Shown: piece after piece, positions 1 through 34,139 of the stretch
How positions within the stretch are numbered: the first letter of the stretch is position 1
How the letters are laid out: the number at the start of each line of letters is the position of its first letter
Assembly: GCA_021513715.1 (NCBI GenBank)
Contig: CP084167.1
Location: forward strand, 2,688,001-2,752,000
Direction of reading: 5' to 3'
Length of the DNA stretch: 64,000 bases
Source of the DNA: Candidatus Heimdallarchaeum endolithica
GTDB lineage: Archaea; Asgardarchaeota; Heimdallarchaeia; Heimdallarchaeales; Heimdallarchaeaceae
Program-made: the position numbers and the translations under genes
The notes under the pieces: model-generated
What the model was told of the DNA's origin: nothing
What the model saw: the letters and a program-made list of their open reading frames with translations, nothing else
Databases searched by the model: none

Positions 1-70
1 GAGAAGGTGGGAGAAACAAAAGATGCTTACTTTTCAGCAAAACAAGGAGAATTAATATCAATAGCTCATG

Positions 71-1551
71 AATAACTTTTTTGTACAAGAATAAAAATGT
101 AGGAAGAAAAAAGAGGGGAGGAAAAAATTTAGGTTTAAATAGGAAAAAAAGATAAAATAAATGATGAAGAAGAAAGGGAGTAGAGAATGGATGGAGAAAA
201 CAGTAAGGATAACTTTACTCCCAAGTAGGAAAAAAGAAAAGTATCTAAAGGATGCGCAAAAAAAAGTAAGAGAACTAGCAAACATACTAATACCCTACAA
301 AAAAAATGTAAAAACAGGAATGGAGTTCCACCATTTAGTATACAAAAGGTTCAGATATCTAGGTCTGCACAGTCAGTTACAAGAGAATGTGCAAAGAAAG
401 GTATATGGGGCAAAAAAGGTAAAAAAGTTCAGAACCTTACCTTTGGAGTTCAACTTTCCCCGAAGTGGAAAGATAGCAAAAACAAGAAAAGACAACCCTG
501 TTTTAGTTGTTTCCCCATTGAAAAAAAGGATAGCTTTTCCTATTTGCCGAGATGGAGGGTGGAGAAGACTAAAGGAGTATACAATCAAGGGGTGGGAAGC
601 ACATAGTTGTAGAATTTTCCAACAAAAAAGGAAAAGAAAAAGGAAAGCAAAAGACCGAAAAAGAAGCAGTAAGGTCAACTATGGGTGGGTAGCACACCTG
701 AATATTAGAAAAGAACTTCCTCCTCCTCAAGAAGTAGAGGGAACAATAGGAGTAGACGTGGGAAGAAAAGTTTTTGCTGCAGTAACACTTAACCACCCCT
801 CTTTCCCTTTATTAGAGAGGTATATGGGAAAAGACATAGCTTGGAAACAACATCAGTTAGCAAAAAGAAGAAGAAAACTACAATCCTACAGAGATAAAGG
901 AAGTAAAAAGGCACGGCGTGCACTAAAAAAATTAAGAATGAAAGAAAGAAAGTATAATAAAACCCGTTGTGAGCAAATAGCTCACGAGATAGTAGATTGG
1001 GCAGTAACTACCCGTTCTGCCATAGTTATAGAAAACATAGAAGGAATAAGAAGTAAATGGAAAAAAGAAAAAACTAAAAGAAGAGGGAAGCAAAGCAAAA
1101 ATCTTCTTCGAGAGTTGAATAATTGGCCTTATGGCTTTTTCCTCTCGTTTTTGACCTCTCTCGCCTATCAACACCATATCCCAGCTGTAAAAGTTGACCC
1201 TCATTATACCAGTCAAACTTGTTCTCGATGTGGACATACTTCCAAGTCTTCACGTGTTAGTCGAGGACTTTATCGTTGTGTTGCTTGTGGTATAGAGCTC
1301 AACAGTGACCGTAACGCTTCTCGTAATATAGCCTTGAAAGGTTTCTCTTTCCTTGCTTTGCCTTTCTTTAGTTCCTGGTCTTCTTTTTATCCTTTCCCAC
1401 GTGAGAAGAAAAATAATTTTCTGGTTTCCGTGGTCGAGGAGCGCTCAACCTCCTCTTCTGGCTCAATGAGTGGTAAGTTCTTCCTCCCTCCCGGATAGAT
1501 CTTTCTCGAGAGTAAGATTGGCGTACAAAAATTTTGTACAAAAATCAAGTT
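71..1551 (+). mobile_element. Non-autonomous TnpB-only element with imperfect inverted ends
   Basis: Removing it restores the host frame. ATGAAT occurs at both junctions (68-73, 1553-1558). The ends share an inverted TTTTTGTACAA, and GTACAAAAAT is repeated at the right end (1523, 1536). Confidence 0.85.
161..1498 (+). CDS. tnpB: RNA-guided endonuclease TnpB (canonical RuvC D-E-D)
   Basis: GVDVG (RuvC-I), VIENI (RuvC-II), VDPHYTSQTCSRCG...CVACG zinc finger, DRNASRNI (RuvC-III). The true start may be the MEKTV codon. Confidence 0.93.
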   Translation: MMKKKGSREWMEKTVRITLLPSRKKEKYLKDAQKKVRELANILIPYKKNVKTGMEFHHLVYKRFRYLGLHSQLQENVQRKVYGAKKVKKFRTLPLEFNFPRSGKIAKTRKDNPVLVVSPLKKRIAFPICRDGGWRRLKEYTIKGWEAHSCRIFQQKRKRKRKAKDRKRSSKVNYGWVAHLNIRKELPPPQEVEGTIGVDVGRKVFAAVTLNHPSFPLLERYMGKDIAWKQHQLAKRRRKLQSYRDKGSKKARRALKKLRMKERKYNKTRCEQIAHEIVDWAVTTRSAIVIENIEGIRSKWKKEKTKRRGKQSKNLLRELNNWPYGFFLSFLTSLAYQHHIPAVKVDPHYTSQTCSRCGHTSKSSRVSRGLYRCVACGIELNSDRNASRNIALKGFSFLALPFFSSWSSFYPFPREKKNNFLVSVVEERSTSSSGSMSGKFFLPPG

Positions 1552-1896
1552 GATGAATGCTTTATCCTAACAATAATTGCCAAGAAAATAGATTCTAATT
1601 TGAGATCTGTGCTTTATTTGATATTACAGAAATTCTGTGAATGTATTAACTATTCAGTATTTATCTCTTCTGAAGTTCTAAAACAAGATGAGGAGGAAAA
1701 GTTTCTTATGATTCTAAAAAGTAACCTTGATGCAATATTGTATTAAAAAGAAACTCATTCTTTTTCCATTATTAAAACTAGTAAATACTAACACTCGTTA
1801 ATTGAGTACATACCTGAAAAACCTTTAAAAAATTTAAATAATTTGAACTTCTTCATAAATTAAAACAACATAATTCTTTTAAACGAATTTCTGTAT

Positions 1897-17093: not shown

Positions 17094-17812
17094 AATATAC
17101 AACCCTTTATTTTTTTCTTTCTTTTTAAAATGATAGAGCAAAATATTTAGATTACAAAATTAAAGAAATTTTATGGTTTCAATTACATTTTATGGTGCAA
17201 TCAATGAAATAGGAGGAAATAAAATACTTCTAGAAGGAGAAGAAACTAGAGTTTTTTTGGATTTTGGCTTGTGTTTTAATCGATATGGTAATTATTTTTC
17301 TCCTTATATTACTCCGCGTCAAGGACTAAAATTAAAGGATTTTATTGAGTTGAGCCTTTTACCTGATCTCGAGGGTTTATATTGACAAGATTTTGAACAG
17401 CGCTTTCGAGAGAGTGCTAAAGAGCCATTGTTCGATGGAATCGTTCTCTCACATTCACACATTGATCATGCAGGATTTATTCCATTTATACGTTCTGATA
17501 TACCTTTCTATGCTTCTGAAGGTTCATTGGCTATATTGAAGGCAATGGAACAAACTAGTTACGGATTCTACGAATTTTTAGAACTTAAAGAGAAATTCAA
17601 AATAAGAGAAAGTAAAAGAGAGAAAGGTAAATATATACGAGATAGAGATTCAAGTATTCGAAGAGAAATAGTTTCTTTAAAATCAGATTTTAAAATAGGT
17701 GAGTTTAGTTTTCATTTCTTCCCCATAGACCATTCAATTGTTGGAGCAACGGCTTATGTTATTGAAACTCAAGAAGGCTCAATAGTTTATACTGGAGATA
17801 TACGTTTTCATG

Positions 17813-19653
17813 ATTTACTTTTTGTGAAGTTTGTCGAACTTAGTCTTTCAAGAAAAAAACAAAGATAGATAATTGTTAGTTTCTTGAGAACTTAATCCTA
17901 ACATACAATGAAAGAAGAAGGATTAAGACAGACGTCATACACGAATCGGGGGAATCATAAAGAAGAAAAGAACTTTTTCTTTCTTTTCTTCACTCCACGA
18001 GAGACAAAAAAGAAAAAACTAAACCCTTGAATATAAGAGTGAATAATTCTTTTTGTCTACTGGGACTGCAACCAATGGCTGAGTCCTCGGCAAACAGTAT
18101 AATGCGTAAGACTAAACTTTTGACCAGTAAAGTAATCAGTAATAGTTGTAACACGGGGACGAAAAAGATGACTAAGGAATTTACGAGCAATATTTCTAGC
18201 TCCTGTTAAATCAGAGTGGTAAGTATAGTTACAAAAGGGACAGTGTATTAATCCTCTGACGGGACGAGAAACTTCTTTTCCACAACGGGAACAATGAGAA
18301 GATGTTCCTCTTTCGTCTATTATAAGAATACGATGAGGAGCAAAACCTCTTAATATCAATGCTCGACGGAGAAGAGAAAGAACTAAAGAAAAATTCCACT
18401 GGTGAAGTTTTCTACGAAAATAACGAGTACTTTTACCTTTCCCTTTTTCTTTTCCTTTTCTAACATTTTTGGGGTAACCTACGACGACGAAAAGGTCATA
18501 CATTTGAGCATAGGTCCCTATCGTCCGCACAACGTCGTTTATAAATTGGTGAATATAGGACTGTTTAACGTTTCTATATCTCCGACGAAGATATCCAAGA
18601 AAACGATAAATTTGGTGTTTTTTACCCGACTGGTCATTTAAAGCCGCTTTCCTCTGAAGACGGGAAAACTTGAGTTTATATCTGTGATTGATTCTATTCC
18701 ACTGTTTGGTATACCAGAATTTTATCTCTTTGCTTGTTAACTTCTTTTTGGGAGTTAGTAACACTCCTACAGCAGGAATGTTTATCCCTAGATCTATCCC
18801 CAGCACAGCTGGGGGAAGAGAAGAAGAATTATTAACTGAATAAGAAAAAGAAGAAGGAGGAAGAACTTCTAATTGAAAATACACCCACCACTCACTTGTA
18901 GAACGTTTATATCTTAATTCCAGGCTTTTCACTTGTCCTTTTTTCAATTCTTTTTGATGGAAAGTGCTCATCTCTAAAGGTAACCACAATCGTTGATGAT
19001 ACCTTGTTTTTCTTTTCCACGTGTCTAATGAGTCTCTTATTCCTACCCACCAACGAGAAATAGAGTTGTTTTTCTCTTTTGGTAAATTAGTAAGAATAAA
19101 CCTATTCTTATTGATTAGTTGTTTTCGGGGTCTCTTTTTTGGAGGACGAGTGGCTTCAGGTCTATATCCTTGCTCGTACAGTTGTACTGCTATATCTCTA
19201 CACTCTTGAAACTCATCATGAGAACAGTAAGGGAACATCTTTTTAAGGTCATGAGGAACAGTCTCTCTTCGCTCTTCTACTTTTTTTAGCCTTGATGTTG
19301 TCAATGTTAGTTCATCTAGTTTTCCTCTATGTACTCTTATTTCTCCTTTCTTTGTTTTCATACACAGTCTTCTTCTGTTGTGATGTATAATTTTTACATA
19401 TTTTCTATTATCCTTGTGTCTCTCCCTGTTATTCTCCTTAATCTTTCCTTTTTTCTCCTCGTCAAAACTTCATTTTTTATTTTTACTTTCAAAGTTTTGA
19501 CTATCTTCTCCATCTTTTTTCCTCTTCTTTTCCTTTTTTTCTTTTTCTTCTCTTCATTTATTTCTACTATTTTTTCTTATAAAAAGTCTCTTTTTTTTCT
19601 TTTTCATCCATACTCTCTATCCTAATGTTCGCAAAATTACGCAAAAAGTAAAT
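17813..19653 (-). mobile_element. Non-autonomous TnpB-only element with ~30 bp terminal inverted repeats
   Basis: CATG at both junctions (17809-17812, 19654-19657). The IRs ATTTACTTTTTGtgaagtttgtCGAACtTAG and ATTTACTTTTTGcgtaattttgCGAACatTAG share a perfect first 12 bp. Removal restores RFHGRKSD. Confidence 0.9.
18057..19513 (-). CDS. tnpB: TnpB with rearranged RuvC-II glutamate; 1-nt frameshift in the N-terminal part
   Basis: LGIDLG, VVVG(YP), IDERGTSSHCSRCG...CPFC, DLTGARNI. The upstream frame MEKIVKTLKVKI... (ATG 19513) joins the 19361 ORF if one base is added at 19401-19404. Confidence 0.88.
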
Positions 19654-20585
19654 CATGGAAGAAAATCTGACCAAAGTTGGGACTTTGTTGAAAAAGCGAG
19701 TACCTATGATCCAATTCTGATGATTACAGAAGGTACAAGAATTCAGGAACAGACAAATGTAACAGAACAAAAACTAGAAGAAAGTTTGAAGGATACAATT
19801 AAAAACATCAGTGAGTTAGCAGTTGCTTCTTTTCCCGTAAGAGATTTTGATAGAATGCAGTCTTTCATTAATGCTGGAAAGGAAAATGAGAGAGAACTCG
19901 TAATAAGTACACGACAAGCTTTTACTTTGGATATTTTGAATAGAGAAAAAATAGAAAATGCTCCTAAACTAAATGAAGTTAAAGTTTTTCTTCCAAATAA
20001 AGGCTGGGGAATATATGATAATTCTAATTATCCTATTGAAATTCAGATGCAGGATTATACTACTTGGGAAAGAAAAATAATGGATAAGTCATCTACAATT
20101 ACAGCTGCTGAAATAAGAGAAAAACAAAGAAATTATGTGTTAAGGGTAGAACCTACAGAATTAAAATATTTACTTGATATTAAACCAAAAACAGGTTCAA
20201 GATACATTCGTTCTTTAACAGAGCCTGTGGATGAAGAGATGGTGATACAACAACAGAAAATGGATAATTGGTTAAAGTTCTTCGATCTTTATCCATATGA
20301 ACAACTGCATTGCTCTGGGCATACCTCAGGAAAAGAACTAGTTCAAATGATAAAGACTATTAGTCCTAAAAAAATCATTCCAATACATACAGAGAAAGCG
20401 AGAGATTTTATTAAAACATTTGAAAATGTAATTATTGTAGACGAAGGTGTCAAAATAACGATAAAATAGACTTTATAGTTCTATTTGGGTTAAATTGCTT
20501 TTCTTTACTTTATTAAAATACTATTAAAAGGTCTCCTATTATATTACTACAAAAAAGTAATAAATGAGAAATAATTTGTTCTTAT

Positions 20586-23746: not shown

Positions 23747-24560
23747 ATGCATCTAAATACACAACAAAGTAGACTATCAATAATAAAAAACAAAATATCT
23801 GACTCTTCTAAAGCTTTAGGGATAATATACATTATTATTGGTTTATCTGGATTTATTTCTTATTTATTTTTATATGCAGGTCAGCACTTTTTGTTAAATT
23901 TTTAAATCTTGATTATCTATTTGTTTCTCTTTTTTTAGTTTCTATATTTCCTATGAGTTGAAATTTTACTTAATTTCTTCAGGACTCTCCCCAACCAATC
24001 AACAAACTTAGCGAAAGTTGTGAAGACTGGCTTAAGAGAACATGAAAGACACAGTCTTAATTAAGTTCTCTAAGGGGTTCATCTCCTGATCCCGGGCACT
24101 CATAACTCCCAAAGGGAAAACCAGGTGTCGTAGGAATGAAACCTACGTCTTTAAGCATTTAGCTCAAGACACTAGATAAATGAGAATTAAATATATAAAG
24201 ATAGCTGAAAAGTTGTGACACTCCCCAATATTTTGTATTTTTTATTTAAGCAAATGTGTTTCAGGTTGTTATTGGTCTAATAACTCCACAAACTAAAAAT
24301 TTAGTTTTTACGTAAAAAAGTATCTTATGAATTAAGTAGTGATACAAAGAAGATAGGTAATACTTTTGGAATGTCTACTATGCAAAACAACTTTGTGCAA
24401 CCAACTAATTTGCAAACTGGAATCTTGATCTTTCGATTAAAGAAAAAGTTGTCTATGCGGCTAATGAGACAAAGATTGCTTTTTAGAAAAATCCATAGGC
24501 TGCAAATCCTAAATCAATGGTTTTAGAAGTAAGAGATAAAAAAATTGACCAGATAGATAA
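23747..24560 (+). pseudogene. Decayed paralog of the 44082..45188 membrane/zinc-ribbon protein, with its centre replaced by foreign DNA
   Basis: 23747-23954 reads MHLNTQQSRLSIIKNKISDSSKALGII.... 24325-24555 matches ...VYADNETKIAF...NPKSMVLEVRDKKIDQ. Both parts carry stops and frameshifts. Confidence 0.85.
23978..24175 (-). ncRNA. Candidate structured ncRNA (three-way junction + pseudoknot)
   Basis: GC-richer, ORF-free segment with several perfect stems. A TATA box (CTTTATATAT, minus strand 24200-24191) lies just upstream of the first stem. Confidence 0.5.
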
Positions 24561-32940: not shown

Positions 32941-33038
32941 AAAAATTTAAACAAAGAATTATTTAAAAATTAATTGTTTGTAACATTTTTTCTTATAATC
33001 ATTTATTTAGCCAATTGATTGCAGAACTTTTTAATAAA

Positions 33039-34038
33039 GCATGTCCAAAAATTCTTTTTCACCTACTAAACGGTCCGAAGGAGTAAAAGGTAGTTGTAAC
33101 AGAGGAGAGAACTGTACAAGGTAGAGAGGATGGTGGAGGGTAAACGATCAAGGATTGGGGGATGAGAGAGTTTGAGGAGACCAAAGACGTGTTCAATACT
33201 ACTACGATACTCGGGGTGATGATTATGACGATACAGACCAGGGTAGAGACGATGAGCTTGAACTATTGGTCCGAGGGGAGGAGGAGAGGGATAACGAGCA
33301 TTACTTTTTGGGGGAATAACAGGAAAAAAGGAATGTTGGCTAAGAAGTCCAACGATATTTTCTGTCCAGTAGGCACAGTCTCCATAAAATCGCAAGAAAG
33401 GTCTCAAGAGTGCAGAAGGAAGTTTCTGCCAGAGTAAACCGAAGACTTTACTATCGTGAGTGTTACTAGCAGAATGAGCGAGAGAGACTATAGCTCGAGA
33501 GGGTAAACCAACTATAAGGTGTATCTTCCAGAAAAGTTTAGAGGTTTTCTTTAGTCCTCCTCTTACCCACTTGAGAAAACGCCAAACAGAAGCTTGACGG
33601 ATTTTAAACCCTGAACTATCCACTGCCATAGCTTTCAAGCCTTTTTTCCTCACTATTTCCCTACCTAAATCTATTATCCACTGCTCTAAGATTTTACTTT
33701 CTGTCGCTCTCCACACTGCATGAAAAGTAGATTTAGAAGGAATCTTCTTCATCCACCCCTCTTCTATCAAAAAATCGCATAAAGCCAACTTTTCCTCTAA
33801 CTTCCTCCAAGCTATCCCTTCTATTCTCGCAATAATTGCTAAAGCCAGTATCACCCACCTTTCTGCTATTCTTTTTCTCCCTCTCTTACTTTCTCTCGGT
33901 TCCTCTTTCACCAGTTTCTTAAGGAAAGGTTCATTAATGATTATGAATTCTCTTACTTTGTGGGGGTCTATGATCTGAAAGTAAGTCATAATTCCGACAT
34001 AAACCCCCACATTAATAAAAATTAATTTTTGGACATGC
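33039..34038 (-). mobile_element. IS5-like insertion sequence, intact copy (1000 bp)
   Basis: Perfect 15-bp TIR GCATGTCCAAAAATT at both ends, enclosing the transposase. Confidence 0.92.
33066..34010 (-). CDS. DDE transposase (IS5/IS4-like)
   Basis: AVDSSG, KIHL, HDS, YGDCAY, RSSIEHVFG..K. Confidence 0.92.
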   Translation of the reverse strand: MGVYVGIMTYFQIIDPHKVREFIIINEPFLKKLVKEEPRESKRGRKRIAERWVILALAIIARIEGIAWRKLEEKLALCDFLIEEGWMKKIPSKSTFHAVWRATESKILEQWIIDLGREIVRKKGLKAMAVDSSGFKIRQASVWRFLKWVRGGLKKTSKLFWKIHLIVGLPSRAIVSLAHSASNTHDSKVFGLLWQKLPSALLRPFLRFYGDCAYWTENIVGLLSQHSFFPVIPPKSNARYPSPPPLGPIVQAHRLYPGLYRHNHHPEYRSSIEHVFGLLKLSHPPILDRLPSTILSTLYSSLLCYNYLLLLRTV

Positions 34039-34139
34039 TTTTAATACAAAAATTAGTTTTTTCAGTTAGTAAATACAAAAATCAAGACAAACAAGAGAAT
34101 AATGAATAAATAAAAAATAGTATAAAATCAAATCAAAAA

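Follow-up and report, generated by a model that had tools for sequence, protein, structure and literature searches.

A multi-copy TnpB element of Heimdallarchaeaceae with AT-core inverted ends and no transposase of its own

A multi-copy element in the genome of Candidatus Heimdallarchaeum endolithica is bounded by inverted ends, has AT at both junctions, and carries tnpB followed by a structured RNA region that ends at AT. The best overall explanation, to which we assign a probability of roughly 0.6, is that it represents a non-autonomous TnpB transposon of Heimdallarchaeaceae. The main interest lies in its end system, which is shared between elements, free of a transposase, and combined with clade-specific predicted TAMs.

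The copy that we characterized lies within a 64,000-nt stretch of this genome (hereafter, the window), where the 1.84-kb inverted-end element interrupts a metallo-beta-lactamase gene (Table 1). Its ends form the longest inverted repeat of the region (17806-17839 / 19627-19660; 34 nt, 82% complementary), including a 12 bp perfect stretch directly past CATG, and excision of the insert together with one CATG in silico restores the host reading frame, in agreement with an earlier sequence-only reading that had described a CATG-flanked, TIR-bounded insert. The host gene contains an additional in-frame TGA at 17383-17385, upstream of the insertion. The sole gene within the element is tnpB, on the minus strand, and no transposase gene was found inside, as had also been recognized from the sequence. 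An archaeal TATA-like box precedes tnpB, and inspection of related elements revealed a similar box upstream. Judged against a 97%-identical intact sister copy, the tnpB of the window copy is missing one A near 19405, a frameshift that separates the 19513 start from the remainder of the gene and leaves 434 open codons from 19361; the start at 19513 proposed for a repaired frame is thereby corroborated. The genome carries at least 12 near-full copies at 79-97% identity; eight of them, including one at genome 2639723-2641180, have an intact ORF. A pair at 53% identity and fragments are present in addition. Because the 12 near-full copies share the same ends, the element is not a chance arrangement, and a genome search thus recovers the TIR that the earlier reading had delimited from a single copy. 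The closest homologues come from H. aukensis, in accord with the suspected Asgard archaeal host, and the organism-named loci among the 80 listed homologue loci belong to Heimdallarchaeota, Thorarchaeota, and other Asgard archaea, with the exception of one bacterial MAG.

Table 1. Features of the element, its host gene, and related loci. Positions are those of the window unless marked as genome positions.
Feature	Position	Strand	Remark
Element 1, canonical-Glu TnpB (ORF 161-1498)	67..1555	+	left flank TCAT, right junction TGAT
Host gene, 5' part	17173..17811	+	metallo-beta-lactamase (RNase J-like)
Predicted omegaRNA	17790..18100	-	stacked hairpins, z = -4.5
Predicted guide	17790..17809	-	flank read outward past AT core; from pseudoknot and conservation boundary
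AT core, right-end junction	17810..17811		predicted last two omegaRNA scaffold bases
Right-end inverted repeat	17812..17839		7 nt, then T tract and short imperfect palindrome
Hexamer	17953..17958	-	predicted to pair with last six scaffold bases (pseudoknot)
tnpB	18057..19513	-	485 aa in intact sister copy
RuvC-III Asp	18210..18212	-	HSD
Alternative Glu	18312..18314	-	IDERGTS, just before C4 zinc finger; invariant in 31 homologues
Gly at canonical RuvC-II Glu position	18477..18479	-	VVVGYP; invariant in 31 homologues
RuvC-I Asp	18792..18794	-	GIDLG (DLG)
Archaeal TATA-like box upstream of tnpB	19578..19585	-	sequence inspection
Left-end inverted repeat	19627..19654		
Left flank CCAT	19655..19658	-	AT core 19655-19656; predicted TAM, V-CAT type
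Host gene, 3' part	19657..20469	+	
M390-family MITE	23952..24329	-	~380 bp, same ends, omegaRNA pseudoknot hexamer, no ORF
Stand-alone serine recombinases (L094, L095)	genome 316728-317561, 405348-406097		

Each end consists of AT, ~7 nt, a T tract, and a short palindrome, in inverted order at the opposite end. CATG does stand at both junctions of the window copy, as originally described, but across copies only a 2-bp AT core is retained: the right end of element 1 reads GAT, CATA is seen in several copies, and an M390 MITE that splits the tnpA of the genome's only IS605 element (L284, genome 923909-925890) at codon 2 shows the junction C-AT-C. This reduces the repeat to a core of 2 bp and rules out a 4-bp CATG duplication, AT being the only sequence always present at both junctions.

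The same end layout is found in otherwise unrelated elements. Element 1, with 3 copies in the genome, encodes a TnpB that, as stated before, retains the canonical catalytic site (VIEN and VDPHYTS). A third unrelated TnpB with this layout is located at genome 598141, and two MITE families (~380 and ~355 bp) use it as well, lending support to the earlier suggestion of a mobilising enzyme common to the first two TnpB elements. The three TnpBs occupy different parts of the tree. The inner end motif varies between subfamilies but switches at both ends together, and the ends, when joined across one AT, yield a computed circle junction in which 64-80% of a 50-bp span is palindromic. Outside Heimdallarchaeaceae, homologues of the third TnpB have different ends, and one of them adjoins an IS607 TnpA. 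Separately, a distant subfamily (L031-L049) keeps the right end, whereas its left region is longer and shows no clear TIR; in different genomes, several of its copies reside at the same locus. No published description of these ends was found in a literature search that covered mainly open-access journals and the main article of PMC10691335.

The rearranged RuvC site noticed in the initial reading is confirmed, with VVVGYP and IDERGTS both located on the minus-strand ORF: Gly takes the place of the canonical RuvC-II Glu, and the alternative Glu sits 55 residues later, six residues before the zinc finger (E402 ... C409). D242, G347, E402, and D436 are invariant across 31 homologues, and RuvC-I is D-hydrophobic-G (DLG or DIG) in 31/31. 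G347 lines up with Cas12f's canonical RuvC-II Glu, and in a viral Fanzor1-like protein, Gly aligns with G347 and the alternative Glu with E402. The protein matches PF07282 over the cut-off and NF040570 under it (84 bits, cut-off 100). The predicted structure (pLDDT 82) best matches Cas12f (Z 18-19), followed by TnpB (16) and Fanzor2 (15.1), and in this model the alternative Glu follows the expected strand. The protein thus combines TnpB traits, namely, Asp at both RuvC-I and RuvC-III, the C4 zinc finger, and the TnpB/Cas12f fold, with the inert residue at the canonical Glu position and the conserved alternative Glu of RuvC-II-rearranged (TnpB2) proteins. Such rearranged sites are common among prokaryotic TnpBs (PMC10691335, PMC10530073). 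The TnpB2 or RIIr-type TnpBs described there share with the element's protein the RuvC-II Gly, the Glu before the zinc finger, and the D-hydrophobic-G at RuvC-I, but the tested TvTnpB resides in IS605 with TnpA, whereas the Heimdall element has inverted ends and no TnpA.

The predicted omegaRNA region contains blocks conserved in the family and matches no Rfam family at threshold. Located 145-230 nt upstream of the end is a hexamer complementary to the last six bases, AT included, and hexamer and end covary (one type in 8 relatives, the other in 26, and one G-U), a covariation that amounts to a single evolutionary event. Because the hexamer would pair with the end including AT, the AT core is likely part of the guide scaffold, so that the guide would begin after the core. 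For IS607, an equivalent arrangement, with the core in the scaffold and the guide after it, has been demonstrated, and for Fanzor1 it has been predicted (PMC10711439). The M390 MITE is probably an RNA-only ghost, given that the pseudoknot hexamer is present in it.

The left flanks are strongly constrained, a fixed motif on this side being a trait of IS200/IS605 (Y1) elements. In the element's TnpB family together with the M390 MITE, C-AT (V-CAT) is found in 29/29 sites, with T at -2 in only 1/29 vs 34% in the background (P 9e-5) and T in 12/29 at the mirror position on the right flank (Fisher P 0.001); other genomes show the same bias, with T at -2 in 0/18. The element-1 family and its MITE have TCAT (9/10 here, 8/8 elsewhere), and the third TnpB family, read by eye, has GAT in 17/17 sites, mostly TGAT. 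The right junctions differ from these motifs in all three cases: TCAT vs VCAT in the element's family, TGAT or CGAT vs TCAT in element 1, and TCAT or CCAT vs TGAT in the third TnpB. We infer that such clade-specific flank motifs, differing from the right junctions, match a TAM with self-avoidance. The VCAT bias is also observed in the M390 MITE, which encodes no TnpB, and the element-1 family favours TCATGA, a palindrome; some of the bias may accordingly originate during insertion.

Taken together, these features suggest how the element might persist and move. We consider it probable that the element TnpB is an active RNA-guided nuclease, with a guide that would start right after AT, and that it would cut, at a 5'-VCAT-3' TAM, the empty site that excision leaves behind. 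Such cutting would favour retention of the element, and the filled site would be spared because its right junction reads TCAT. The element itself would exit as a double-stranded circle with an AT-centred palindrome at the junction, and one of two stand-alone serine recombinases would move it in trans, in a manner comparable to the 2-bp crossover of IS607. Exit as a circle and movement in trans by a family-fixed chromosomal serine recombinase form the more tentative part of this scheme, and we put them somewhat short of even odds.

A 2-bp core with a palindromic junction suits the chemistry of serine recombinases. The two candidates, ~245 aa long with the catalytic motifs present, are found as a pair in 29/31 Heimdallarchaeaceae genomes vs 0/52 genomes of the rest of the class, a co-distribution that counts as one lineage-level coincidence. 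Their positions on the chromosome are syntenic, and they may have a function in the host; both are conserved (~75% for one) and confined to Heimdallarchaeaceae. Two genomes in which the serine recombinases were not found also have ends that finish in ACTCAT. Extra copies of the recombinases come with neither TnpB nor such ends, and the recombinases never adjoin TnpB. The likeness to IS607 extends to the dinucleotide crossover core within the guide scaffold (PMC10711439) and to one close TnpB relative (P0136), which sits behind an IS607 serine TnpA, but the Heimdall core is AT rather than GG, the ends are inverted, and no IS607 MerR-HTH serine TnpA was detected in the element, in the genome, or in H. 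aukensis. The IS607 elements of relatives were rejected as partners given that their ends differ; these elements (L143-L152, L170) carry a divergent ~480 aa gene that the element's TnpB profile does not detect.

Searches for another mobilising enzyme revealed no such gene within these ends or next to them at any locus. A genome-wide end scan detected no enzyme enclosed by paired ends, and the genome yielded no further multi-copy candidate; a metagenome scan returned one, uninformative locus. One stand-alone tyrosine recombinase is present in the genome. With a 16-bp spacing, however, the arms lie too far apart for a typical Xer-like site.

The strongest competing explanation, which we nevertheless regard as unlikely, is a cut-and-paste DDE transposase that duplicates AT and whose autonomous partner is lost, extrachromosomal, or unrecognised. 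True TIRs, MITE derivatives, and a preference for palindromic C-AT-G targets are all typical of DDE elements, and inverted repeats bound all six DDE-associated TnpB groups (DDE-1 to DDE-6), with solo TnpBs, including those of the IS1341 type, moved in trans (PMC10691335). Unlike those elements, the Heimdall family has no detectable DDE partner, and one end layout spans three unrelated TnpB clades. Moreover, the genome contains no match to IS630 or DDE_Tnp_4, the four resident DDE families (ORFs of 314, 312, 232, and 381 aa) differ in their TIRs and make longer duplications, multiple TIR subfamilies have expanded within a closed genome without a cognate enzyme, and the outer 7 nt, usually the part best conserved by DDE enzymes, are the most variable at the left end. 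Among the resident insertion sequences, an IS481-like element (312 aa, TGT...ACA ends) at genome 365826-366853 (L002) has ~27 other copies and 16-bp target duplications, long for an IS, and a 314-aa IS5/IS982-like element with ~33 copies is represented in the window at 33027-34060 (genome 2721027-2722060).

Single-strand movement of the IS200/IS605 kind (HUH, Y1), with the left tetranucleotide serving as both target and TAM, a tetranucleotide of its own closing the right end, and the shared AT being no duplication, appears more doubtful still. It would explain the oriented, family-specific targets (VCAT, TCAT, TGAT), those of the MITEs included; the TGAT of the third family resembles TTGAT, the target of ISDra2. 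However, the ends are inverted repeats rather than the asymmetric hairpins of Y1 elements, G follows the right AT in 32/39, and the enzyme is scarce: Y1 TnpA is encoded in 4/31 genomes of the family and was not found in the closed, copy-rich H. aukensis genome, and the sole Y1 tnpA of the genome under study is the one split by the MITE.

The sequence-only reading had proposed that this TIR-bounded TnpB family is relevant to the origin of Fanzors, and the comparison with Fanzor-type proteins does not bear this out. An Asgard TnpB lineage near the Fanzor ancestor, already inside a TIR transposon, would account for the shared Gly/alternative-Glu site, which aligns with that of the Fanzor1-like protein, and for the TIRs and the core within the guide scaffold, which parallel Fanzor1 elements (PMC10711439). 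With Fanzor1, Fanzor2, and pro-Fanzors, the family further shares non-autonomous TIR carriers and RNA-only ghost copies. However, the combination of DPG at RuvC-I with the alternative Glu defines Fanzors and pro-Fanzors, and a separate clade combines the alternative Glu with D-hydrophobic-G (PMC10711439); the element TnpB, from an archaeal host, reads DLG and belongs to a separate branch. In maximum likelihood trees built on ~245 RuvC-region columns, the family lies inside a prokaryotic clade, two starred branches deep (97/98, 98/96), which part it from the Fanzor-like proteins, and in the careful tree, which omits 31 near-redundant rows, the viral DPG proteins form a single branch of their own (97/91). 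These DPG proteins were gathered from viral contigs by motif rather than taken from curated references and sample one Fanzor1-like lineage. With the Fanzor2 profile, the element TnpB scores 32 bits, no higher than ordinary TnpBs, canonical ones having a median of 66 and the local IS605 TnpB reaching 95; Cas12f outranks Fanzor2 among the structural matches; and the element shows no Fanzor-type association with an IS607 TnpA or a eukaryotic transposase. A joint clade forced with the Fanzor-like proteins was not rejected by the AU test (p 0.33), so that Fanzor ancestry counts as unsupported rather than refuted; we consider it very improbable, and the likeness to Fanzor-carrying TIR elements most likely reflects convergence rather than ancestry.

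In the tree, the family sits beside the Cas1-linked TnpBs of Thorarchaeota. By these comparisons, the protein family is close to a described group, the aCas1-linked TnpBs, since the Thorarchaeota relatives carry a neighbour with a Cas1 fold and the GTTCACTCA motif. The aCas1-associated Asgard TnpBs (Cas1H-Asgard, PMC10691335) are 31-35% identical to the element's protein, near to it in the tree, and have the same Gly/alternative-Glu site, but the Heimdallarchaeaceae branch differs from them in having neither an aCas1 neighbour nor GTTCACTCA, in its AT-core inverted ends, and in its high copy number. Least probable of all is an Asgard Cas1-like integrase as the mover, as proposed for these relatives: 25 Thorarchaeota loci of the TnpB family face a large gene with an N-terminal Cas1 fold (top 12 matches, Z 9.7-13.4), and many have the GTTCACTCA motif that PMC10691335 describes for aCas1-linked TnpBs, but Thor-type aCas1 was found in 0/31 Heimdallarchaeaceae genomes, the Heimdall ends lack GTTCACTCA, and the only canonical Cas1 copies in the genome are of the CRISPR type. 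In the large Thorarchaeota protein (L050-L093), which is encoded divergently from tnpB, the Cas1-fold N-terminus is followed by PD-(D/E)xK-like and ATPase-like motifs, as identified by eye, and at these loci, a short variable stretch and a conserved hexamer come after the downstream motif, in some cases reiterated in the manner of a mini-array. Two more distant TnpB relatives (L287, L288) adjoin MazE/AbrB-like genes.

Returning to the non-autonomous transposon, its broadest form would be a transposase-free platform of Heimdallarchaeaceae, in which unrelated TnpB-omegaRNA modules with AT-centred ends are moved by a domesticated serine recombinase and TAMs select the insertions that persist, a generalization that we advance as speculative and, on balance, rather unlikely in full. 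In known TnpB elements, the TAM is matched to the cognate transposase. Here, three unrelated TnpBs apparently share one mobilising system yet differ in flank motif, and a shared mobiliser combined with distinct motifs would make it possible to test directly which of the two, TAM or transposase, determines the insertion sites. Since the TAMs (VCAT, TCAT, TGAT) and the guide boundary can be predicted from sequence, the intact copies could be assayed as compact nucleases. If true, movement by a host-encoded recombinase would constitute a new route of TnpB spread.
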